From a virus (Duplodnaviria > Heunggongvirae > Uroviricota > Caudoviricetes): DNA of 11,540 nt. Position 1 is the first letter of the stretch. Each line of letters starts with the position of its first letter. The position numbers and the translations under genes were made by a program. Shown piece by piece: positions 1 through 11,451 of this stretch. The stretch is from positions 1 through 11,540 of the IMG/VR virus record IMGVR_UViG_3300029762_000045; one strand, given 5' to 3'. The notes below the pieces were generated by a model, which was not told the DNA's origin, searched no databases, and was given only the letters and a program-made list of their open reading frames with translations.

Positions 1-260
1 TATCGCCAGAACGCCAGCCCGATTTCCTTGCTGAATCCACGAACCTCTGGCAGGTACATGGCGTGGCAATCGAATGTCAGCGGCTGAATCTCCTGATAGT
101 AAACAATGCCGCCGAACTGCCCGTGCACGTTCACCTCAAAGTAACGGCAATCATGTTTATAGTCGTATCCATCACCGTTGTTGCTCCCGGCAATAATGTC
201 AGGGTGATTTCCGACTGCTTCGATCAAGTCGATGTTTCGCGTTGGTTTGAACTGAATCAT
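1..260 (-). CDS. Partial CDS, 5' end of the gene downstream of the tail needle (P22 gene 14 position); runs off the window
   Basis: Minus-strand ATG at 258-260 overlaps the needle stop (TAATG junction). The frame is open for 86 codons to the window edge, giving [38 protein letters not shown]... Assignment is by synteny only; I do not recognise the sequence itself. Confidence 0.55.
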   Translation of the reverse strand, partial: MIQFKPTRNIDLIEAVGNHPDIIAGSNNGDGYDYKHDCRYFEVNVHGQFGGIVYYQEIQPLTFDCHAMYLPEVRGFSKEIGLAFWR

Positions 261-1213
261 TACTGCTCCGCGATTATCTTGATGGTTGTGGCAGTAAACG
301 CCGCCCCATTTGACTGAATAGTTAACGTACTGCCATTTGTGGCAAGAAAGCCGTCTTTATCCACGCTGAAGAACGTAGCTAACAGGATGTTGTCGGTTGT
401 TGTCGCCGCATTACGACTGCTGACCAGTGTGTCAGGAACAGAGCCGGAAAAGGTTAGCTGCATTGACCTGTTTGCGGTTCCGCTGGGCCACGTCCCGACA
501 ATCGACAGCTTGAAGAACAGGGTTTTGTTCTCGTTGAACACAACCATCTTGTTGTTAACGGTGTCGAAGAATGGTGCCAACGAGCCGGATGACGGCGTGA
601 GCGTTTTCAGCAGGCTAACAAGGTTGGTCGGCGCTGTCGGGATGGTTACAGATACGCCAGAGTAAACAACCTCTGATTTCTTGCGCGTGGTGGCATACTC
701 AAGCGCAGATATTCTTGTTGAGTGATCACCAACTGTGCTTTGTAGCGTCGAAATACTTCCCTCTGCCGCTGTGAGCCTGGTATCAAGTGCGTCGATATCG
801 GTTGTATTCTGAGTTATGCGCGCATCATGGTTTGCTAACTCAGATTCATTGGCAGCAATTCGCGTCTCGTGATCAGCCAGCTCTGTTTCAGCAGCCGTAA
901 TCCTTGTTTCATGATCTGCAAGAGTGCTTTCCGCTGCTGCAATTCTATTTTCATGATTGATGAGAGTTGCTTCAGCAGCTTCAATTCTGGATTCATGGTC
1001 TGCAAGGGTGACATCCTGCTCATCGTTCCTGACCTGTGCATCATAAGCGCCCTGTCCGGCCTCGTTGGCCTTGTTAGCCACATTACCAACATCAGTACCC
1101 TGTGCGATAACGTAAAGCAGATACGACTGCGAGAAGATATTGCGTGGAAGGATTGATGTATCGAGCCGCGTAGCCTGGATGATCACCGGCACATTGAGAT
1201 TCGAATCCGCCAT
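260..1213 (-). CDS. 26: Tail needle protein (P22 gp26-like N-terminus, coiled-coil shaft, extra C-terminal knob domain as in Sf6/HK620-type needles)
   Basis: 317-aa ORF. The N-terminus [25 protein letters not shown]...[13 protein letters not shown] closely matches the P22 gp26 N-terminal domain as I recall it. It is followed by 14-residue repeats and a roughly 150-aa Ser/Thr-rich C-terminal domain absent from the 233-aa P22 gp26. Start overlaps the gp10 stop (TAATG). Confidence 0.9.
758..1009. repeat. Tandem ~42-bp (14-codon) repeats inside the needle gene, encoding the coiled-coil shaft
   Basis: Protein units [14 protein letters not shown] / [14 protein letters not shown] / [14 protein letters not shown] / [14 protein letters not shown] / [14 protein letters not shown] / [14 protein letters not shown]. 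On the DNA, related 42-bp blocks recur at about 840-881, 882-923, 924-965 and 966-1007, for example gtttcatgatctgcaag versus gattcatggtctgcaag. Confidence 0.7.
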
Positions 1214-2631
1214 TACTCAATCCTTATCTGGCAGCCAGACAGAGTGACAGGTGACTTCGTGATAACGCGCAATTTGAAGCCGACATTTTTCCTGATGCGC
1301 CCGACTCGCTTCCACAAAACGCGTTTGTCGTAAACGAACGGTTCATTCTGCTCAATAATCTGCTCACGCCCGTAATTTATGCCGTCAGTGGTTGCAGAGA
1401 GGAACAGGCGGTCGGCGTACTGAGCTACGCCAGTGGATGATTCCACCTCCAGATCGAAGCATCTGGCGTTATCCGCTTTGAACAGTGGAGTAAACAGCAG
1501 GTGTTCCTGTTGCTTGTCGTACTGGCTGCTGATGTCGAATTGCAATTTCCCGGTCACGGACTCCAGTTTATCGCCGCACGTTATCTGATTGCCTTCGTAA
1601 ATGAAGTCGATAGCGCGGTACACATCGTCATACAGTCCTGTTTTCAGCACACACCATTGCGGACCATTGGTGCTTGAAGATGCGTCGTACACGAGGACGT
1701 GGCGCGCAAGATGGATAATCAGCAACTCATGAGCATCAAATCTCAGAGACTCCATCACGCCATCAGCCAGTTCATCAGCAGTGTAGGAGCGGAGGATTTT
1801 CTCAATGCTCGCGCTGGCGATTGGTGATACCTGACCGGAGCCTATGATGTATACAGACGGCGCACCTGTTGCCGGATTGCTGATGAACGCATACGAGTCA
1901 GCAAACGGCGTTTTGCAGTAAGTCCCGGCAATGCCTTTCTGCACCATCAGTGATGGCTGTGCGACATACAAAGCGGCACCAACGGTGGTTGCACCTGTCA
2001 GGGAAAAATATTCAATCGTCGATGAGCCAAAGCAGACGATGAAGTCTCGCCATGTACCTATGCCGATGATGCCGTCCGGCTGAGACTCGGCACGATATTG
2101 TGCACTGTAGCGGTCAGGATGCGATTCATCTTCAAGGTCAGTGATAAACCATGAATCAGTGCCGTCTTTTGACCACGCATAACGCCCACGTAAGCGCGTA
2201 ATGTCGCGAACTGAACCTAACTCATACTGAGTGAATCCACTGTCTGTAGGCCAGTTTGAGACGGTTTTAACCGTGCCATCATAGCGATACTCGACCAGTT
2301 GACCATTAACGCCTACCGCCTGTGATGTCCGACCATGCGCCATTGATACACGACCACTTCCGGCAACGTCACCGACTTCACTTTCTCCTTTGTACAGCTT
2401 GCCACCACACACACGATAAACAGCACTCTGCGCCATGTTGTACTCGACGCCTCGCGATACTCCGTTCACATCAGAACGTTTGGCAATGCCCGGGAATGAG
2501 CGAAGATATCCGCTGCTGTTGAGGATTTCTTTGGGTGTAGCCAGCATATTCACTGGCAGATAGTCGATATAGTCGGCGTTTAGAAAGTCTTTGCCGACAC
2601 CTTTCATAAGCGGAAGTTGCTGAATCGGCAT
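1213..2631 (-). CDS. 10: Tail hub / head completion protein (P22 gp10 homolog)
   Basis: 472-aa ORF, the same length as P22 gp10, in the gp4-gp10-gp26 order. Start overlaps the gp4 stop (TAATG). Confidence 0.9.
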
Positions 2632-3131
2632 TATTCGCTCCCGTTATCGCAAGGTTCCTTCCGGTGGAAGTAATTCCAACCGTTCCACTTCGCCAACTGG
2701 TTACCGCTACCAACAGGCATACGGTTTGGATAACCGGACTTACATTTAGCGGCTTTTGCTCTGTCCATTGCAGACAGTTTGACGAGTCGCTCTTTCCCAT
2801 ATCTGGCAGTGGTTATAAGTTTTGCTGACGCTTCCAGCGCATAATCTGGAGCAATGCGGCAGGCAAGGTTGAAAATGACGGCATTGATAGCGTTATTTGA
2901 CAAACCGTGCTCATCGCCAGGATCCGGAGCGACATCTGCATCAGCAAAAATGTAGCCAACGTTGATACCAGGTGACGCATCACCGCCAAGCCATTCAGCC
3001 ATCATCATTTCAAGGTCGTTGACGCCGTCTTCCATAGACTGCGGTTCGACATCGGTTAACGTGGCATTTGATGCCACACCGAGCTTACGTAATGCCGCAA
3101 GAACTAAATCACCCTTCGTTGTCAGGTTCAT
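2631..3131 (-). CDS. 4: Tail adaptor / head completion protein (P22 gp4 homolog)
   Basis: Start chosen at the internal Met ([33 protein letters not shown]...), which aligns with the P22 gp4 N-terminus [33 protein letters not shown] as I recall it and gives 166 aa. An AAGGCGG Shine-Dalgarno-like motif lies upstream. The longer ORF start at 3197 would overlap the upstream gene further. Confidence 0.88.
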
Positions 3132-3702
3132 CTGCTGCCGCCTTAGGTTTTCGACTAGGCTTTTTACGCTGTTTTTCTTCTGGCTCTGGCTCTGCAATAG
3201 CCGGACGCAAACTCAGGAGTCGTCCAAGAACATCATTTGCTTCATGGCCATCCCACTCTTTCCCGAACTCAAGCTCAGTACCTTCAGGAAGGAACTCGAT
3301 TTCTTCAACAGGTAGGTGATAAGTGATTTCGCCTTCTGGAGTGGTGATACCAGCAATGATCCAGCCATCCCACTCTTCACCGTCACTGTGTTTGCGAGAC
3401 CACCACGAAAGCTCAGCGTAAGCATGCATCAGCGATGAGAAGAGGCGCACTCGGTGAGCGTAAAGCTCGTTAAAAGTGTGATAACCGTCGGACACTTCGC
3501 CCATATCAACTGGGGAAGTTTCACCTCCGCCAACACTCCCAATTTGATCACCAACAAGAGGATCATCAGGAACATCGTCAGGGTGCTTATACCAGCCATT
3601 TGATAAGTGCACAGCTACATCATCAGGATCAACGGTTTTCGTTTTCAGCTTGCGCCCCCAGATTTTGGTATCTCCGCCAGCCTGAAAAATCATTACGCTC
3701 AT
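3109..3702 (-). CDS. Hypothetical protein, 197 aa, acidic and Trp/Asp/Pro-rich with a Lys/Pro-rich C-terminal tail; extra gene between coat and gp4
   Basis: Open frame with ATG at 3700-3702 preceded by GGAGAT 6 nt upstream, beginning [19 protein letters not shown]. The listed ORF extends to 3882 but that portion overlaps the coat gene and lacks a start signal. The 3' end overlaps the gp4 start by 23 nt. No family recognised. Confidence 0.7.
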
Positions 3703-3711
3703 TGGTATCTC

Positions 3712-3740
3712 CAATAGAAAAGGGAGCCGAAGCTCCCTCT
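3712..3740 (-). terminator. Intrinsic terminator-like hairpin immediately downstream of the coat gene
   Basis: Minus-strand RNA reads AGGGAGC-UUCG-GCUCCCU (7-bp GC-rich stem extendable to 9 bp, UUCG tetraloop) followed by UUUUCUAUU. It lies between the coat stop (3746) and the next start (3702). Confidence 0.55.
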
Positions 3741-3745
3741 GGTTA

Positions 3746-5041
3746 TCACGCAGTCTGGTTAGGCAGACCAACACCAATTGCCTCTGGTCGTACAGCACAT
3801 GCTGAATACCACACAGCAATACGGCACTTACCAGACAGAGTGTTGATATCACCCTGCGTTGCGAAGATGCCGTTAACACCAATGCCAGGAATGCTGAAGG
3901 AAGACGTTTTCATGCCAGCAAACAGTTCATGGGTTACCGGGATCGGCTGAGACAGCAGACGGATTGAGTCATCAGCCCAGAACACGTTAGCGGTGGTTGT
4001 TGCCACGTTCAGAACGTTTACCGGAGTGGTATCAGCAAGAGAGGTGTTTACGTTAGCGTAAGCCTTCTCTTCTTTTGTCAGTGACGCGTCATCCAGTGCA
4101 ATCGGCTTCGGCGTGATTTCGATGTGAGTACCATCGATCACACGGGTGATTGAGAAAGTCGCATCATCAGTCAGCACGTTCTTCGCCATCTGAGACAGGA
4201 ATTTCACACCAGTGAAGCTGATTTTGTCGCCGCGCTTAAATCCGGTGGTGGAGGATACGGTCACCGTTGCAACACGGTTGTCGACGTTCTCCTTGTTACC
4301 ATCGGTATCAAGGGTGTATGCCTGCGGCTTAAACTTCTGCGCTCCAGTCACAGTTACACCAGTAGCGGTTGACTTAGTAACTGCCGGAAGTTTCGGTGAG
4401 CGAAGAATTTCATCAAAGCCAGCAATCTGACGCTGAATAGTACCGTTGCGATACGCTTCTTCAGGAACGCGCCCAAAGATGTCACCATCTACCAGGTTGC
4501 GGCCTGCTTTGCGGTAATCGTCAGGGTTCAGGAAGTAACTGATGCCCATATCGCGGTTTAGCTCACGGGAGAACATCAGGCGCTCTGCATCAGACACAAA
4601 ATCCCAGCCAGACAGGCCAGTAGATGGACCAATTGCGCGGGTATCGTGAACAACAAGTGAGCCCATTTCGGTTGCCTGTTTGGCAATTGCTGACTCAATG
4701 TTATTCGCCAGTTTTTTGGCGGATGCCTGGATGCGGCGACGGTAAGAACGCTCATCACGCAGGTCATCTGCACGAAGCTCGAAGAAATCGTTATCCGGAT
4801 CACCCATGTTGCATTTCACGGAGAGTTCCAGAATCCCGGTTGCGTTGCCAGTTAAATCCCAGCCAGTCTGGGTTGGAGCTTCCTGCTCAACAGGCATCCA
4901 CACGGTGTTGCTTGAACGCTGCATGGATTCTGCCGGAGGGGTGTATTTTGTCACTTTGGACGCCATTGGCGTCAGGTTCTGGACGGTTTCGATGATTTCA
5001 TCCAGAGCATACGTGACCAGTTGACCTTCATTTAATGCCAT
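3746..5041 (-). CDS. 5: Major capsid (coat) protein (P22 gp5 homolog)
   Basis: 431-aa ORF starting [20 protein letters not shown], with high identity along its length to P22 coat protein as I recall it. Start overlaps the scaffold stop (TAATG). Confidence 0.95.
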
Positions 5042-5952
5042 TATCGAATTCCTTTATTCAGTTGCGCCTTAAGCTTGCGGTACGTCTCTACATCCCCTTT
5101 GTTTGCTGCCGCCTCCATCTGCTTTTCAATCGCAGAGATATTTGCAGCAACAGCATGTCCCTGAATGGGTTCATCAGGTAACGGGGCTTCTGAAACAGGC
5201 TTGGCTCTAGGCTTGAGAGTTAAACGCTCTGACAGTCGAGTGAGTTCAATCAGCGCTGATTGCCCGTCCATCGCCAGCAACTGGCGTGTTTTCTCAGGAT
5301 TAGCACCAAGGTGATACATGAGAGCGGCGGATTTCTCCGGGAAGAGGCGCATGATGTCGGCACCGACTGCTGGCGGCACCAGTTGCATGAATGCATCCTC
5401 TTTCTCCTGATAGTCAGGGATATTGAGCTTTTCCGCTGCGTCGTAGTGCTTACGGGCTGCCTCGACGTATTGCGCTGATTGCTGGGTGAACTCCTGAGTT
5501 TTGCGACCCTGCTCGGCAACAGCCTGGCTTCGTGCGTCCATAGCCTTGATCTGCCATTCACTGTTTGCCTTCTGGAAGGCAGCCAGTGCGCGGCTCTGGT
5601 CATAGTCGTACTTAGCCAGTGCATCTTCGGAAAGATAATCGTTAGGGTCTGGTTGTTTTGGTAACTCAGGGTTCACCCGCAGGTGCTCCGGCAACTCTCC
5701 ACGCTTAACCGCTTCCATCTGCTGCTCAAGCTCACGCTGGCGTTTGCGTTCGATGCGGCGACGGGCAAATTCAGCATTAGTTGCCGGGTCTTGTTTTGGT
5801 TTCTCATCGTCTTTCAGGACAATCTCGAAGCCTTCTTCCTGACCTGCGTTGTCGTTGGCATTATCGACAACTAAGCCATCAGCAGATGCCGCTGCATGAT
5901 TGCCGGGCAGGGTTAATTCTTCAGAAGCCTGAATGTCGGTGGTTTGGTCCAT
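5041..5952 (-). CDS. 8: Scaffolding protein (P22 gp8 homolog)
   Basis: 303-aa ORF, the same length as P22 gp8, with recognisable similarity ([21 protein letters not shown]..., C-terminal ...[11 protein letters not shown]...). Sits between portal and coat. Confidence 0.95.
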
Positions 5953-5965
5953 GATTAACTCTCTC

Positions 5966-8131
5966 TTATTGAGGTGTCTCGGCTACTCCGCCGGAGGGGA
6001 TTTGAACTTGACGCATAAGATTCGCGAAATCCATGCGTTGTGAATGAGTCTGGTCTGCATCTTTAAGAAGCAGCTCAGCGTTAGCACGAGCATCTTTGCT
6101 GCGCTGTTGCTGGAATTGACCTACGAGCTTGAGGTACTCACGCAGTTCTGCCTGCTTGTCGAGGTCCATATTGTTGAAGATTTCTGCAATCTTCGCGGCG
6201 TTGAGTTGGTTTTGGGCTTCAACCTTGGCAGCTTCAACCTGAATCTGCGCCTGTTGGTTCTCTGCCTTGAGCAATTCAGCCTGACCTTGCAGAAGGATAC
6301 CCTGCGCCTGAATTTGCTCTGCTGATGGCTGCTGCGGCTGTTGTTGTGCCTGCTGTACCATCTCCATCTCTTCAGGTGTTTCTGGTTTCTTCAGCCCCAT
6401 CATCACCAGTTGCTTGTTCGCGTACTCTCGCATCATCTCGACGCCTTTGCCGTCAAGCAGCGTGAAGTATTGCAGCATCAGCATCTGGAACTCTGGAGTA
6501 CCTTGCGGAACCTTGGTGAGCAACTCCTGAATCTCTGCGCGGTTCTGTTCCTTCATGCTCTGGAAGGATGGTCCGACGTCTGTATAGCACTCATAGCGAC
6601 CGCGAATGTCGTTGAGTGTGACCACATTGCCGGACTGGTAATCGACAACTTGCGCATAGAGTTGAACGTCTTTCTCGCTTCCATCTTCAAGTGTCAGCGT
6701 TACATGACGAGGAACGTCATAAATATCGTTGACCATTGAGGCATAAATCTCGCCATCACGTCGCATTGCGGTAGCCAGGTTATCCTGAAACACGTATGTC
6801 TCAAGGTCTGCCCGCATGTTCAGTTGATTGACGGTATCGAAAGCGACCTGACCATTTGCCGCCTGCGCATCCACGCCAAGACTAGCCACCTCTTTCACTG
6901 CGTTGGTGGCAGCCTCAAGCATGTAAGCGTTGGCTTGCGGCACTTCAGGGTTTTCCATGTAGGAGATTGGACCAATCGGCAGGTCGTTACCGTTTTCATC
7001 GGCCTTGTTCTGCAGATAGTACGGATAGTCATCATTTCCACCGTACATATATTCGTAGCCTTCGATTTGCTCAGGGAAGAAGGTAGGTTTCTTCTTCGGT
7101 GAACGAGCAACAATATCGGCGTTGAACGACATAATCATGTTACGAAGGCGCTGACCGTCTTTCGTCAGCCTTACCACTCCTTCGTAGCACTCCTTGTCAC
7201 CAGCGAATGACCATTCGCCATACACTGGAACGATTGGGATATGCTCTCCAGCTATCTTCTCGCGGTCTTTCAGTATCTGCGTGCAGGTGACGATCGACTT
7301 ATACACACGCCGACGCTTCACCTTGCGCTCTGCTACCTTAATGAATCCACGATTAGCCAGGTCGTCGATGACGTCTTTGATATCCTGCTGGTAATAGCTG
7401 ACCGGCTCGCCTGTCAGCGGGTCGCGGTAGATGAAGACCTTCTCCTTCTTCTCTTCTACCTCGTAATACTCAGCGACGTAGACGACATCATTCGACACCC
7501 ACGGGAATAGCCATGTATCGTTAGGATTCTGGAAAGATGGCAAGGTATCCGGGTCAATACCGTAATCCTCTGCGAACTCTTTCCAGCCATTGCGCGACAA
7601 GGCGTTAATCACCGTGCAATGCTTAGCGTCGCTCTTATCCATCTGCTTGCTGTTGGCGTCCCATATAACGTGTGAGCAAGCTTCATGGATTGGCAGGCGT
7701 CGGATTACCTGATTGTTGCTTGTTGGGTCGTTGTCTTCGTACTGCGTGACCAGACGCCATGCACCAACGCCGGACTCTATCTGCTCACGAACGCCAACGT
7801 TAACGGCAATTTTTGCCGTGTTATGGCGCATATCAGTACGATACATCCCCATCAGCACATCGGCAGCATCAGGATTAGCGCCGTCTTTTGGTCTGAAGAG
7901 AACGTCGATAGGGTTCCGGCGCATCTCTGCGACCAGCTTCCTGACCACCGGGCGGACAACATCGAATTGTCCGCGATATTGCAGGGTGGTGTAGTTTGAT
8001 AGCCAGTCATCCCATTGCGACACTCGGCTAAAATACAGGTCATTTGTCGCCTCGGTTCTGGCTTCATCGCTCGCCATCCAGTCTGCGTCAAACTTACACA
8101 GAATGGAATTGAGTCTGTTTTCGTCGGCCAT
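5966..8131 (-). CDS. 1: Portal protein (P22 gp1 homolog)
   Basis: 721-aa ORF (P22 portal is about 725 aa) with a Gln-rich C-terminal helical region typical of the P22 portal barrel. Immediately follows the large terminase. Confidence 0.95.
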
Positions 8132-9631
8132 TTAAGTTCTCCGTGCGATGGGCCTGATTGGGGCTGGTATCTTTTTCTCTTTTGGCTTTTTGATGTCGCG
8201 CATCATTTTTGCGAAGCGGCGCATCATGTATGCATAGCGAACGGCGGATAGCACGTCGTCGTTAAGCTTGACGATTTTCCCGTTTTCATCACGGTGATAG
8301 AGGCGGAACTCCTCAAAGAATGGCTCACAGGTGTTGAATACTTTGAAGCGACCGTCGAGCATCATGTCTCGCAATTCAGTGATGCCAGGCTCAACAGCAT
8401 TACCGCCATCAGGCCATGTCGCATGCTCCTGCAACATCATAAAACCAGCGTCCGCGTACTGCCATTTGAGCTGCTCACCGCCGCCCTTCTCGTGCTGGTT
8501 TCCGTCATGAGGCCATGCGGTTGGCACTTTATGCGCCCATGATTTAACGGCTCCCCATGCCTGAACGGCTGTTTTTTCTTTCGCCTTCCAAACGCGTGAA
8601 AGGTAGATTATGTCTGCGTCCTTATCCCACCAAAGCTGAACCTGCGCCTGTGGGTGATCCCATCCGAAATCCATCCCGCCAATTACGTAGAAGTGATCAG
8701 GACACTCGAACGGCTGACACTTAATTGTCTCTTCCGGTATCTGGAAGATTCGACCACTACCCATCGTAGGAATACCGCGAGCACGCGCCTCTCTCTCATG
8801 CTCAGGATAGGATGCGATGATTTGCTCTTTCTGCTCGTCGGTGTAGTGCTCAGCGTCATAGATGGTCATGTTGACCACTTTCTGCGACTTGCTGGGATTC
8901 TTCAGGAACTTGGTAACAACGTCAGACATCCCCATCAGCGGGGTAAACGTCAGAATTGAGAATTGCCCGTATTTGTTGGTACGGGTAAGACCTTCGCCAT
9001 AAATGCTGTATGGTGGCTCTTCGTCAAACCACACGCCGTGGATTGTGTCACCCTGCCAGCGAGCGCGGCCTTGCGAGTATGGTTTGAAGTAGCAGATTGA
9101 AATGCCATCTTCAACGCCATCAGCCGTGTGATGCTTAACCAGAAGATGATCAACAAGGTTCGGAAAGAAAGGAGACTTCTTCCAGCTAATGATGTCTTCT
9201 TTAGGTATGGAACCGTAGCCTGGCTCATCATTCTCTTCGATACGACCACACAGGATGCGTTGAGTCGTTTTGGTTACAGTCTCGTTTGTCTCGCCGCCAA
9301 TCCAGAAGACAACAGGCTCATAGAAACGCTTACCTTTCCACTCCCCACCATATTTACCATCAGCCGGATAGCCTTTTGTTCCCGGATAACGCCCGGTAAG
9401 GTGAAACGCGACTTCAGCAGCCCCAGTAAATGACTTACCAAGCTGGTTACCAGCCATAAAACAGCGCTCTGGATAGTCATGCCCGGCGTCGATGAACTCA
9501 CGCTGTTTGCTGTATGGCGTAAATTCATATAGCAGGTGTGTGTTCCGGTAGTTCTCTTCTTCTTCGAGTAGCTCGAGCAATTCGATTTGCTCTTCGTCGC
9601 TCAGGTTATCAAGAATCGCGTCCAGTTCCAC
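8132..9631 (-). CDS. 2: Terminase large subunit (P22 gp2 homolog)
   Basis: 499-aa ORF, the same length as P22 gp2, starting [28 protein letters not shown]. Overlaps the 3' end of the small terminase by 23 nt. Confidence 0.95.
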
Positions 9632-10097
9632 GGTTGAATAGCTCCTTGATACGAGAGCGTCGCTTATCGCGATCTCCCTTATCAGGTGTCACGTCTTCAA
9701 CTTGCGACTGCTCTTTGAGGCCCAAATCACGGGCGATGATGTTAGCGTTGAGAAGGTCAGCGGCTGCGCCAGAGAATTTCTGGTCGTAGATGACCTGCTC
9801 TGCTCGCGTAACGACTTCAGATAAATCTTCTCGCAGGCGATATGTGCGCCATGTTTCAAGCGTCACATCAATGAACAGAGTGAGGCCTGTAATAGTCATC
9901 GCTCGCATCTTGGCGATAGGCTCTTGTATCACTTCACCCTGATACGAGAACGCCTTCATCTCCCATAGCGGGTTAGCTTCTACCCACTCGAAGTATTCAC
10001 AACAAGCAGCCCACAGCGCCTCAGGCGATTCGAATTTAGGATTTCGCCCATGACTACTGCGGGCCTCCCAAAATCGGTTGCCCTTTGGTGCTGCCAT
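9609..10097 (-). CDS. 3: Terminase small subunit (P22 gp3 homolog)
   Basis: [50 protein letters not shown]... is essentially the P22 gp3 sequence. Start placed at the second ATG to give 162 aa as in P22; the ORF track begins two codons earlier (MNM, 10103). Confidence 0.93.
9805..9830 (-). other. pac site (headful packaging initiation site) inside the small terminase gene
   Basis: Minus strand reads GAAGATTTATCTGAAGTCGTTACGCG, encoding gp3 residues EDLSEVVTR. This matches the P22 pac sequence as I remember it (about 22 bp, GAAGAtTTATCTGAAGTCGTTA), at the expected place in gene 3. Confidence 0.7.
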
Positions 10098-10120
10098 ATT
10101 CATCTCACTTAATTGTCATT

Positions 10121-10300
10121 TCAGGTTAAGGACTCTTTCGCGCCTTCAATCAGTGACTGCTTCAGCAATTCGAGTGTGCCAATCGCCTCGCATAAACTGA
10201 TTTCACCATCGTAATCATGGATGACGCTTTCAAGTCGCTCGTATAGCTCTTGAGTAATTGGGAATTTCTTCTCCTTACCAAGATCAACGACGCTTGTCAT
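10121..10300 (-). CDS. Hypothetical small protein, 59 aa, acidic and predicted helical
   Basis: ATG at 10298-10300 with AGGA 8-11 nt upstream; TGA stop at 10121-10123, 17 nt before the terS start region. Translation MTSVVDLGKEKKFPITQELYERLESVIHDYDGEISLCEAIGTLELLKQSLIEGAKESLT. Below the 60-aa cutoff of the supplied ORF track. Confidence 0.5.
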   Translation of the reverse strand: MTSVVDLGKEKKFPITQELYERLESVIHDYDGEISLCEAIGTLELLKQSLIEGAKESLT

Positions 10301-10309
10301 AGAGGATTC

Positions 10310-10597
10310 CTATAATTTTGAATATCCAGACTCAAATACCTCAGCAGGAGAATATGATTCATATCCATCCTCATAGACAACGTAATAGCCTCCAGACATT
10401 GGTCGGTGCTTACAGATATATTCCGCGCTAACATCAAATGCTGCGTATTTCTTATCATCCGGATGAATAATTGCCCCATAACTAGAAGAGCCAGTCTTAC
10501 CAGACTGATCTGGGTTTGGCTTATGTTCTATAGAGCCAATCTTCAGGGCGCGAACTTTTTTGTGGCACTGGTATCTCGGCATTTCTTGTTCAGTCAT
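10310..10597 (-). CDS. Hypothetical small protein, 95 aa, with two Cys-His-containing motifs
   Basis: ATG 10595-10597 lies 3 nt after the stop of the upstream ORF, with GGAG 10-13 nt upstream. Translation MTEQEMPRYQCHKKVRALKIGS...YICKHRPMSGGYYVVYEDGY... No family recognised. Confidence 0.6.
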   Translation of the reverse strand: MTEQEMPRYQCHKKVRALKIGSIEHKPNPDQSGKTGSSSYGAIIHPDDKKYAAFDVSAEYICKHRPMSGGYYVVYEDGYESYSPAEVFESGYSKL

Positions 10598-10600
10598 CTC

Positions 10601-10843
10601 TTACACTCCGGTAGTGAACAGGTCTAACGCTTCCTTCGATTTACGCACCGCTTCGATAGTGCGGGTCGTGATATCTGAATTAGCGCCGCCTGACTGGAAG
10701 TGAATTTTGAATAGCTCAAGCTTCAGCTCATCAGTGCCAATGAATTGAAATGCTTCTTCTGCGGCTGCGTTCTGGTTCATGACCAGTTTGTAAATCTCTA
10801 ACTGGAATTTCTGTTCTTCAGTCATGGGAATAATCTCTGCCAT
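10601..10843 (-). CDS. Hypothetical small protein, 80 aa
   Basis: ATG 10841-10843 with GGAG about 7-10 nt upstream; first gene of a tightly packed three-ORF run leading into terS. Normal GC content. Confidence 0.6.
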   Translation of the reverse strand: MAEIIPMTEEQKFQLEIYKLVMNQNAAAEEAFQFIGTDELKLELFKIHFQSGGANSDITTRTIEAVRKSKEALDLFTTGV

Positions 10844-10950
10844 TGTTGGCTCCGTTTATCCGTTAAAAGGGATATCAGTTAAGTTATCCCGTGTAGGGTA
10901 TAAGCCATTATCAAAGCCACTCTGTAGGGAATGGCTTTTGTGATGGCAAT

Positions 10951-10972
10951 AAAAAAGGCCGACTTAGCGACC
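10951..10972 (-). terminator. Putative intrinsic terminator downstream of the AT-rich small gene
   Basis: Minus-strand RNA reads GGUCG-CUAAGU-CGGCC (5-bp stem including one G-U pair) followed by UUUUUU, beginning 18 nt after the TGA stop at 10990-10992. Confidence 0.4.
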
Positions 10973-10989
10973 AATTTAATAATTAATTA

Positions 10990-11232
10990 TCAATAATGTG
11001 GGAATTGGTTACTATTTTGCAAGATAACCCAAGATGGGCGAAACAAGTCAAAAACATTGATGCTTAACAGGGCTTCATTTATTGATTTTTTTTCATCCGC
11101 AGAAACTCCGCGTCCTGCATTTGACATTACAAGCTGACCATTAACTATTTCACTACATTGTTTTACATAACTACCTGGCGGCATTGATTGAAAGTTACAT
11201 GTACCATTTATTATTTTATCAATTTCACTCAT
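10990..11232 (-). CDS. Hypothetical protein, 80 aa, in a markedly AT-rich segment (moron-like)
   Basis: ATG at 11230-11232 with GAGG 8-11 nt upstream; TGA stop at 10990. Visibly A/T-rich relative to the flanking structural genes. Translation MSEIDKIINGTCNFQSMPPGSYVKQCSEIVNGQLVMSNAGRGV...; no signal peptide. Confidence 0.55.
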   Translation of the reverse strand: MSEIDKIINGTCNFQSMPPGSYVKQCSEIVNGQLVMSNAGRGVSADEKKSINEALLSINVFDLFRPSWVILQNSNQFPHY

Positions 11233-11451
11233 ATCAACCTCGTCTAGTTGTTCGTCATAGATTCAGTGGCTGGCGGTGACGATTCCGCTTTTCGGGAGCT
11301 ACCCTAGCCACTGTTTTATTCTATCCGATGTCTTTCCATCAGTCCGCCACCACAAAGAATCTTTTTTGCCATAAGGCTGGAGGTTCATCTTTCAGTGGCT
11401 GCCAGTGTTATTTCCCTACTTACTGGCTTGGGTTGTTTCGCTGTACTGCCG

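Follow-up and report, generated by a model that had tools for sequence, protein, structure and literature searches.

A P22-like Escherichia phage tail needle of the known HS1 type, with a shaft that differs in length among relatives by whole heptads

A gene for a P22 gp26-family tail needle of the HS1 subtype of the Sf6 class, almost certainly from a P22-like (Lederbergvirus-type) Escherichia phage or prophage, is present in the window (the whole stretch of 11,540 nucleotides that was analysed), and among relatives of its product the coiled-coil shaft differs in length by whole heptads. The needle type is already known: its architecture, the structure of its knob and its lack of a role in host specificity were published in 2013 (Leavitt et al., PMC3741392). 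The role of the plug, the fold of the knob, its glutamate binding and its effect on ejection kinetics are taken here from the literature, while the identity to HS1 and Sf6, the anatomy of the repeats, the allelic series with its DNA junctions and the module boundaries were computed in this study. In the part of the literature that was covered we found no description of the allelic series, of its junctions or of a fitness effect of needle length, and nothing specific on a repeat-recombination mechanism or on a role of core histidines in needles.

Identity and architecture of the needle

An earlier note, made from the sequence alone, had placed the needle reading frame at 260-1213; these coordinates stand, with the gene on the minus strand, its ATG at 1213 and its stop codon at 262-260 (Table 1). 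The stop codon overlaps the ATG of the next gene by one base (TAATG). The gene lies between homologues of gp10 and gp14 on the same strand, with start and stop codons overlapping, and this order is identical in the P22, Sf6, HK620 and HS1 loci. The gp10-type product is annotated at homologous loci as a packaged DNA stabilization protein and, by analogy, is the tail hub whose channel the needle would plug. Matches in the PDB (4K6B, 3RWN, 2POH and 5BU5 by phmmer) are joined by matches to PHROG 1219 "tail needle protein" (E 2e-59) and PHROG 1030 "tail needle knob" (E 2e-136). Because solved homologues are 98% identical, the protein presumably forms a trimer, is incorporated into the virion and binds glutamate.

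Table 1. Features of the tail needle locus (positions in the window)
Feature	Position	Strand	Evidence
Tail needle gene (P22 gene 26 / Sf6 gene 9 homologue), HS1 type, 317 aa	260..1213	-	ORF list; PDB, Pfam and PHROG matches
Conserved N-terminal plug domain, helical hairpin, codons 1-67	1013..1213	-	Identity to Sf6 gp9 98.5%, HK620 gp26 97%, P22 gp26 83.6%
Five tandem 14-residue (42-bp) units, codons 68-137	803..1012	-	Unit layout, heptad register, TRF, lag-42 test
Distal shaft, codons 138-172	698..802	-	Layout comparison with P22, Sf6 and HK620; phmmer; AlphaFold
Neck and Sf6-type knob, codons 173-317	263..697	-	About 98% identity to 4K6B/3RWN; PF16532
Module unlike nearest-backbone phages, about codon 77 to stop	261..983	-	blastn against fetched loci; whole-window phage search
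Upstream neighbour, gp10-type tail hub ("packaged DNA stabilization protein")	1213..2631	-	PF11134, E 4e-299; homologous-locus annotation
Downstream neighbour, gene 14 homologue (DUF2824), cut by window end	1..260	-	PF11039, E 1.6e-29

The closest named relative is the needle of HS1, a prophage of E. coli HS (EcHS_A0316), which has the same 317 aa and the same three-part architecture; 310 of 317 residues are identical (97.1% DNA identity), with 95.9% identity in the flanking gp10 and gp14 genes. The seven substitutions (I21V, N89H, D100E, A107D, T138A, S211T and A269S) leave all glutamate- and phosphate-contacting residues conserved, and the HS1 needle shares the shaft of 15 to 16 heptads with five DHExRI units. 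The published HS1 needle has 317 aa, 16 heptads (11 in Sf6 and P22) and a helical region of about 210 Å (PMC3741392). Counted from NDEQD to YATTRKK, our shaft has 15 heptads and that of Sf6 has 10, the same difference of five as the published 16 versus 11.

Sf6 gp9 (Shigella phage, 282 aa, 3RWN) occupies the same gene position, is built from the same DHExRI unit type and is 97.9% identical over its last 144 residues, but its shaft is shorter by five heptads (35 residues, about 52 Å), has three DHExRI units against our five, and is without the heptad GSISTLQ present in our needle. P22 gp26 (Salmonella phage, 233 aa, 2POH/3C9I) has a homologous plug and the same plug and needle role, and its residues 68-130 correspond collinearly to residues 68-81 plus 124-172 of our shaft; it has two DHExRI units, exactly three (42 residues) fewer, and ends in a triple beta-helix and inverted coiled coil unrelated to our knob. 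HK620 gp26 (233 aa, 5BU5/5BU8) shares the plug, and its residues 69-106 resemble shaft segment 125-162, the second phmmer stretch to that needle; unlike our needle it has a P22-type tip without a knob, of which it is subtype A (PMC3741392).

The plug itself is recovered against the P22 gp26 structures with E of about 4e-42, and against 2POH, 3C9I, 4ZXQ and 8EAP with E of 1e-27 to 1e-43; an AlphaFold monomer model has low confidence over this region. In the Sf6 cryo-EM structure the N-terminal hairpin of the needle plugs the tail hub (PMC9728967). The earlier claim that the first 65 or so residues match P22 gp26 is borne out at 83.6% identity, but the label "P22-type N-terminus" is imprecise, since the plug is common to the whole family and nearest to Sf6 and HS1.

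The needle was also said to be mosaic, and its body does behave as a swapped module. Over 261-983, blastn of the window found no DNA similarity to APC_JM3.2, HK620 or P22, although APC_JM3.2 comes nearest to the window in its head genes; similarity to the nearest-backbone phages resumes precisely at the start of gene 14. The head genes of the window (gp4, coat, scaffold, portal and terminase) form a module that matches phages of the APC_JM3.2/IME10 type and has no DNA similarity to HS1 except a weak 157-bp match in gp4 (72%).

No evidence speaks against the identification as a needle.

The knob and host range

The C-terminal domain matches Pfam PF16532, "Sf6-type phage tail needle knob" (Phage_tail_NK), along the entire profile (1-175 of 175; 356.5 bits against a cut-off of 27), and over residues 165-317 (153 residues) it aligns at about 98% identity with both knob crystal structures, that from HS1 (4K6B, E 1e-89) and that from Sf6 (3RWN, E 8e-89). 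The HS1 knob, for which 4K6B is the crystal structure, is itself 99% identical to that of Sf6 (Leavitt et al. 2013, PMC3741392). In HS1 numbering, the L-glutamate-contacting residues E181, K235, S283, D285, L290 and K312 (PMC3741392) are all present, as is the distal triad S266-R267-N268. AlphaFold predicts residues 179-316 of the monomer to be beta-rich. By analogy with 4K6B and 3RWN, the knob is a TNF-like jellyroll trimer that would bind L-glutamate. Public annotation already uses the name "tail needle knob protein" for such needles.

A Ser/Thr-rich C-terminal domain absent from P22 gp26 had been proposed, and this is what we found: Ser plus Thr make up 27.6% of residues 173-317, the last 144 residues are 10% identical to the P22 tip, and the P22-type tip (triple beta-helix plus inverted coiled coil, residues 141-233 of P22 gp26) was not recognised in our C-terminus. 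The suggested alignment to known needle knobs likewise returned strong and conserved similarity to those of Sf6 and HS1. Of the proposed Sf6/HK620 likeness only the Sf6 half survives, as HK620 has no knob (6% identity over the last 144 residues).

That the knob is a receptor-binding domain for the host envelope, making the needle together with its shaft length a hotspot of host-range variation, seems to us improbable. The idea has some appeal. The needle projects past the tailspikes and should contact the outer membrane first (PMC3741392), phages that are otherwise alike have exchanged its body as a module, and the same paper describes a resemblance of the knob fold to the receptor-binding knobs of adenovirus and PRD1; an Sf6-specific role of the knob on Shigella was left open by Leavitt et al. 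(PMC3741392). However, when P22 was given the knob of HS1 or Sf6, its infection of Salmonella stayed normal, its host specificity did not change and only its K+ release became slower, and the authors thought it unlikely that the knob acts in host specificity (Leavitt et al. 2013, PMC3741392). The knobs of Escherichia and Shigella phages diverge by no more than 4.9% (PMC3741392), and across our best 80 IMG/VR loci they are 97 to 100% identical and among the least variable parts of the needle, a near-invariance that is the opposite of what a diversifying receptor-binding domain would show. One and the same knob occurs next to tailspikes of 446 to 901 aa, and needles of both main lengths go with tailspikes of about 450 to 900 aa, the length class of the needle being unrelated to that of the tailspike (Mann-Whitney p = 0.95). 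The near-invariant knob, its many tailspike partners and the published swaps thus speak against the host-range hotspot put forward in the earlier note.

Layout of the shaft repeats

Of the 15 heptads of the variable shaft, ten (two thirds) belong to five 14-residue, two-heptad units in residues 68-137, all clear copies of the consensus xxL(A/I)(D/N)H(E/D)xRIxxxx. The heptad register is clean across all 15 heptads, with L or I at core position a, H and A alternating at d, E at e and R or T at g, and the H, E, R and I/L positions of the unit are invariant in 15 homologues of 74 to 98% identity. AlphaFold predicts one continuous helix over residues 42-175 of the monomer, with block-mean pLDDT of about 90 to 98 over residues 61-160. 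The distal shaft is collinear in layout with residues 96-130 of P22 gp26 and comprises a degenerate sixth unit (residues 138-151), the odd heptad GSISTLQ (152-158) and a seventh, related neck unit (159-172). A count of at least six units, as first proposed, is therefore generous: five are clear, the sixth is degenerate and the seventh only related.

The units had further been described as visible 42-bp repeats in the DNA. This holds for the periodicity, as the DNA identity at a lag of 42 is 0.567, compared with 0.305 ± 0.032 in 5000 codon shuffles (z = 8.3), but only about three copies are detectable by Tandem Repeats Finder (42-bp period, 3.0 copies, positions 887-1010, 69% matches, score 116). 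Pairwise DNA identity among the units spans 33 to 76%, the maximum being that of units 1 and 3. The five-unit array is kept in homologues at 74 to 80% protein identity, including those of Klebsiella aerogenes and Serratia marcescens, which indicates that the array is old and mostly stable rather than a rapidly expanding repeat.

Length variation among relatives

Among the best 120 of about 2500 homologues, the shafts of 109 of 113 relatives consist of whole heptads (6 to 19), and length differences are in-register gains or losses of 14, 28 or 49 residues. Relatives of 289, 303, 317, 331 and 345 aa (at least 88% identity) form a series with 3, 4, 5, 6 and 7 contiguous DHExRI motifs, respectively. 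The 345-aa allele is our needle gene with exactly 84 bp duplicated in tandem and joined within the shared stretch CTTGCAGA(C/T)CATGAA; with the duplication removed, the two differ at 1 of 365 shaft positions. The 289-aa allele carries an 84-bp deletion between units 1 and 3, the same pair as in the 345-aa duplication, and one 303-aa allele has lost 42 bp at a junction in CGCGAAT. Among these best 120 of about 2500 homologues, the junctions distinguish at least 12 separate gain or loss events.

Such variants recur but are uncommon. Every one of the 79 IMG/VR loci that were parsed has a needle of either 282 or 317 aa, and a 66-nt query for the unit-4/5 junction of the 303-aa allele found one exact and one diverged match in 5426 complete E. 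coli genomes. Junction queries for the 289-aa allele and for the duplication are confounded, since they match ordinary units or join two pieces, and a scan of species-representative genomes yielded 9 loci, too few for allele statistics. A match of needle length to tailspike length was considered and rejected: in 53 IMG/VR loci with complete tailspikes the medians were 682.5 versus 682 aa (Mann-Whitney p = 0.95).

The earlier note had suggested that the tandem repeats allow the needle to change length by unequal recombination or slippage, and had made this depend on repeat number varying across relatives. The allelic series and the exact 84-bp duplication and deletion at the same units strongly support repeat-mediated change, and the number of DHExRI motifs does vary from 3 to 7, even though two lengths still dominate. 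We infer the mechanism itself solely from its end products.

It is very unlikely that the rare alleles are artefacts of short-read collapse or expansion of the repeats, or of wrong gene calls. Some entries may well be: the 345-aa and 338-aa alleles occur on one contig each, so that an assembly error is possible for the former; entries of 324, 288, 285, 298 and 394 aa have normal shafts and are evidently alternative start calls or fusions; and the four off-phase shafts (73, 86, 97 and 104 residues) are all singletons. Against this, the units (42 to 84 bp) are below typical read length, the indels always preserve reading frame and heptad phase, and many alleles recur, with contig counts of up to 16 to 17 for the 303-aa alleles, up to 8 for 289 aa and up to 12 for 254 aa; the 331-aa allele, a duplication of the same kind as in the 345-aa allele, is on 5 contigs. 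One 303-aa junction is moreover found at 100% identity in the complete genome CFSAN061770.

Hardly any credence is left for a reading of the 14-residue periodicity as a mere convergent heptad signature of coiled coils with no DNA repeat, and of the length classes as replacements by unrelated shaft modules: most unit pairs do have low DNA identity (33 to 64%), Tandem Repeats Finder detects few copies, and some 282-aa and Citrobacter needles have clearly different, HK620-like shaft segments, so that module replacement also occurs, but units 1 and 3 are 76% identical in DNA, the lag-42 identity lies 8.3 SD above codon shuffles, the motif L..DHE.RI..AE far exceeds a plain heptad pattern, and alleles differ by exact 42- or 84-bp indels within near-identical DNA, seen as clean unit-sized gaps in alignments.

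A comparable lengthening is seen in 4LIN (300 aa), which aligns to residues 1-184 of our needle (E 8e-48) and in which a block of the P22 helical core appears twice, a lengthening similar to that of the natural 331- and 345-aa alleles; the block repeated there belongs to another part of the P22 shaft, and its tip is of the P22 type. Its PDB entry is named just "Tail needle protein gp26", and we take it to be an engineered, laboratory-made elongated P22 gp26 fibre.

Proposed working and implications

Plugging of the portal and tail channel and its release at infection are known from published work (PMC9728967, PMC3741392). Within such a scheme, residues 1 to about 60 would form a helical-hairpin plug inserted in the hexameric gp10 tail hub, where it would hold packaged DNA inside the head. 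A single long helix is predicted from about residue 42 to 175; it would trimerise into a coiled coil of about 200 to 210 Å, with L(a)-H(d)-I(a)-A(d) as the core of each unit. The distal tip, residues 173-317, is probably a TNF-like jellyroll knob, whose solved homologues bind three L-glutamates. At infection the tip would be placed to contact the outer membrane first, after which the needle would be expelled and the channel would open; what the tip would tune is how fast DNA is delivered, not which host is infected. The 42-bp units, for their part, could serve as substrates for in-register unequal recombination or slippage at shared stretches of 7 to 15 bp, by which whole units of about 21 Å each would be gained or lost with the heptad phase unbroken.

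More tentatively, the shaft might be a heptad-quantised variable-number tandem repeat (6 to 19 heptads, a range of about 135 Å; the published needles span 11 to 16, PMC3741392) whose lengths are selected for an envelope dimension, such as O-antigen or capsule depth or tailspike geometry, or for the timing of ejection, and whose invariant histidine at core position d could confer sensitivity to pH or ions. We consider this full proposal doubtful, and any fitness effect of needle length is presumed.

The needle gene itself is another copy of a known type and nothing new. Its shaft is a clear-cut natural case of a coiled coil whose length appears to change by whole two-heptad units, through recombination at short homologies. 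Should length influence the kinetics of infection or reach across the envelope, the shaft would offer a simple feature to engineer for control of DNA delivery by podoviruses, and it would be a warning, too, for annotation pipelines that split length variants into different proteins.

Identity of the tail needle

The needle encoded in the window is the published HS1-type tail needle: it was described from prophage HS1 of Escherichia coli HS (PMC3741392), the same 317-amino-acid allele is present in phages Gally, JEP4, and vB_EcoP-720R6, and its RefSeq name is "tail needle knob protein"; therefore, the object is already known. Only 7 residues separate it from the HS1 needle (NC_009800, positions 320115 to 321068; 317 amino acids), the DNA identity being 97.1%, and it retains all residues named for HS1 as contacting L-glutamate (E181, K235, S283, D285, L290, and K312) as well as the distal S266-R267-N268 triad. 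The knob matched PF16532, "Sf6-type phage tail needle knob," in Pfam with 356 bits (cutoff, 27), and PHROGs matches were to "tail needle knob" (E value of 2e-136) and "tail needle protein" (2e-59).

The earlier note, made from the DNA alone, described a P22-type N terminus, a repeat-built shaft, and a knob of the Sf6 or HK620 type, and this description was largely accurate. Residues 1 to 67 have 83.6% identity to P22 gp26 and 98.5% to Sf6, the plug being a family-wide domain, and P22 gp26 (2POH and 3C9I) was matched over residues 1 to 139 (E value of ∼4e-42). The Ser/Thr-rich C-terminal domain is indeed absent from P22, since its 145 residues (27.6% Ser plus Thr) have 10% identity to the P22 tip. 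In a search of solved structures, residues 165 to 317 matched the HS1 knob (4K6B; ∼98% identity, E value of 1e-89) and the proposed counterpart, the Sf6 gp9 knob (3RWN; ∼98% identity, E value of 8e-89). The HK620 needle (5BU5) matched residues 1 to 79; the HK620 tip is P22 type and lacks a knob, so that part of the proposal does not hold. In the published description of HS1, the N-terminal virion-binding domain is 98% identical to that of Sf6 and the knob, a TNF-like jellyroll fold, is 99% identical (Leavitt et al. 2013, PMC3741392).

Features of the needle gene and its neighbors in the window
Feature	Position	Strand	Description
Tail needle ORF	ATG 1213, stop 262-260	-	317 aa; sole ORF at these coordinates
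Core His, one per shaft unit	803..1012	-	codons 73, 87, 101, 115, and 129; heptad position d
gp10-type tail hub gene	stop overlaps needle start		472 aa; PF11134, E 4e-299
Gene 14 homologue	ATG overlaps needle stop		DUF2824
WDGH-domain ORF	3109..3702	-	197 aa; PF25311, E 1.4e-39; phrog_3769, unknown function
Four small ORFs upstream of small terminase gene	10121..11232	-	
Small ORF	within 10121..11232	-	59 aa; phrog_3546
Small ORF	within 10121..11232	-	95 aa; phrog_11049
Small ORF	within 10121..11232	-	80 aa; DUF2560; also in P22 (as ORF80) and HS1
Small ORF	10990..11232	-	80 aa; no Pfam or PHROG match

Genomic context and module exchange

The remaining window corresponds to a P22-like late operon, encoding gp4, the WDGH-domain protein, coat, scaffold, portal, and the large and small terminase subunits. 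Recombination has joined two module types in the window. Positions 1 to 2636 (gp14, needle, and gp10) have 95.9% identity to HS1. Outside this segment, HS1 matches only a 157-bp stretch of gp4, weakly (72%), and two short segments past 10.6 kb; its DNA has no match to the coat-to-terminase block. The head genes of phages APC_JM3.2 and IME10 have ∼96 to 98% identity to the window, and the coat-to-small-terminase block (3708..10103) is 97.8% identical to APC_JM3.2, the needle bodies being unrelated. No DNA similarity to APC_JM3.2 was found at positions 261 to 983; therefore, a different module makes up its needle body (about codon 77 through the stop), and its 233-amino-acid needle is of the HK620/P22 type. 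Such exchange is usual among P22-like phages (PMC3741392).

The WDGH ORF occupies the slot between the coat gene and gp4, where P22 carries ORF69 and HS1 a 62-amino-acid ORF, and at its 3′ end ∼23 nucleotides are shared with the start of gp4. Its DNA had no match in APC_JM3.2, P22, or HS1, and the ORF resembles a moron-type insertion. Positions 10104 to 10605 and 10923 to 11321 likewise matched nothing in the DNA of P22 or APC_JM3.2.

Knob-type needles in other hosts

As of 2013, reports of this knob type were confined to phages of Escherichia and Shigella (Leavitt et al., PMC3741392). We observed knob-type needles in prophages of Klebsiella aerogenes, Serratia marcescens, and two Citrobacter species (proteins P0064, P0067, P0069, and P0072; genome loci L093 and L094) and in Klebsiella phage phiKp_30 (LC768498.2). 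The Citrobacter needles join an HK620-like shaft segment to the DHETRI neck and the knob. Aeromonas and Corallincola (loci L095 to L099) encode free-standing knob proteins of 167 to 172 amino acids (46 to 52% identity to the knob studied here) with a short N-terminal extension only and no coiled coil, matching the "outside" homologues of Leavitt et al. (PMC3741392). Among E. coli O157:H7 and O55:H7 hits (H63 to H73), many genomes match only nucleotides 507 to 952 of the gene, its knob half, at ∼94% identity. They probably correspond to the small needle-bearing remnants of P22-like prophages noted by Leavitt et al. (PMC3741392), in which the gene may be truncated or may have a diverged 5′ half.

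Needle function and host range

The suggestion that the knob and repeats form a hot spot of host-range variation runs against the evidence. The knob is nearly invariant across the 80 IMG/VR loci closest in knob sequence, the same knob is paired with tailspikes of 446 to 901 amino acids, and needle length class showed no link with the length of the tailspike (P = 0.95). In published experiments, P22 bearing either the HS1 or the Sf6 knob still infected Salmonella normally, mutations affecting glutamate binding had no visible effect, and tip changes slowed K+ release; the authors assigned the tip an effect on the kinetics of delivery and not on host specificity (Leavitt et al. 2013, PMC3741392). 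Our observations on the knob agree with a role other than specificity. At the opposite end, the N-terminal hairpin has been shown structurally to act as a plug in Sf6 (PMC9728967).

Shaft repeats and predicted structure

From residue 68, the shaft comprises five 14-residue units, a degenerate unit, the odd heptad GSISTLQ, a further unit, and YATTRKK before the knob. Identity at a lag of 42 bp was 0.567, compared to 0.305 ± 0.032 in codon shuffles (z = 8.3); therefore, the periodicity is not due to chance. Of the six or more units that the earlier note describes as still visible as 42-bp DNA repeats, TRF recovered only 3.0 copies (positions 887 to 1010; 69% matches). Units 1 and 3 share 76% DNA identity, and the remaining pairs share 33 to 64%.

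In the heptad register, position a is L or I, d alternates between H and A, e is E, and g is R or T; no substitution at the H, E, R, or I/L positions occurs among 15 homologues with 74 to 98% identity. AlphaFold predicted, for the monomer, a single helix over residues 42 to 175 followed by a beta-rich domain (residues 179 to 316), with block-mean pLDDT values of ∼90 to 98 across residues 61 to 160. The 134 predicted helical residues would extend ∼200 Å, in line with the ∼210 Å predicted for the HS1 helical core, which has 16 heptads versus 11 in Sf6 and P22 (Leavitt et al. 2013, PMC3741392).

Each unit places a His in the core, with Ala occupying the next d position, and this His is among the invariant residues, as are the Glu and Arg after it. 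Stacked His layers in a trimeric core could serve in ion binding or a pH response; the literature searched contained nothing on core His in needles.

Variation in repeat number

The repeat count is not invariant among relatives. Among the best 120 cluster representatives of the protein search, needle lengths were 254, 268, 282, 289, 296, 303, 310, 317, 331, 338, and 345 amino acids, the few others evidently being alternative start calls. Shafts comprised whole heptads in 109 of the 113 needles that could be delimited (6, 8, 10, 11, 12, 13, 14, 15, 17, 18, or 19 heptads), and the 4 off-phase shafts were all singletons. The latter (P0053, 309 amino acids with a shaft of 97; P0049, 298 and 86; P0055, 285 and 73; P0005, 316 and 104) stem from 1-, 4-, or 5-residue offsets at repeat junctions; candidate explanations are sequencing error, gene defects, and coiled-coil stutters or stammers that are tolerated.

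The heptad layouts show clean unit-sized events. In the HS1 series, 303-amino-acid needles arose by two distinct 14-residue deletions (fusing units 1 and 2 or units 4 and 5), with a third junction in P0039; 289-amino-acid needles by two distinct 28-residue deletions; the 268-amino-acid needle by a 49-residue deletion joining unit 4 to the neck unit; the 345-amino-acid needle by a 28-residue duplication; and the 331-amino-acid needle by a duplication plus a deletion. In the Sf6 series, deletions of 28 and 14 residues gave 254 and 268 amino acids, duplications of 14 and 28 residues gave 296 and 310, and a 28-residue block is triplicated in the 338-amino-acid needle.

At the DNA level, the 345-amino-acid allele is the window's gene plus an exact 84-bp tandem duplication, with its junction within CTTGCAGA(C/T)CATGAA, common to units 1 and 3. 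The 289-amino-acid allele has an 84-bp deletion between these units, with its junction in CATGAA, and one 303-amino-acid allele has lost 42 bp, the junction lying in CGCGAAT. Unit-sized gains and losses, including a duplication and a deletion of the same size at the same units, bear out the idea that length changes between the repeats, probably by slippage or unequal recombination. With the duplication removed, the window's gene and the 345-amino-acid allele have 1 difference in the shaft, compared to 19/189 in the plug region and 26/400 in the knob region; therefore, the gene is also mosaic internally.

The variants are rare. Among the 80 IMG/VR loci closest in knob sequence, 56 of 79 parsable needles had 282 amino acids and 23 had 317, and in 40 rows spread over 1,104 matching E. 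coli records, 317 and 282 were the only lengths, the other rows being knob-only remnants and P22-type needles matching the N terminus only. One 303-amino-acid junction occurs in 1 to 2 of 5,426 complete E. coli genomes, and the five-unit 317-amino-acid architecture is kept in divergent homologues (74 to 80% identity), including those of Klebsiella aerogenes and Serratia marcescens. Therefore, units have been gained and lost repeatedly, in 12 or more events, but needles of two lengths are strongly favored. The remaining interest of this needle lies in its heptad-quantized allelic series and a possible link to length selection.
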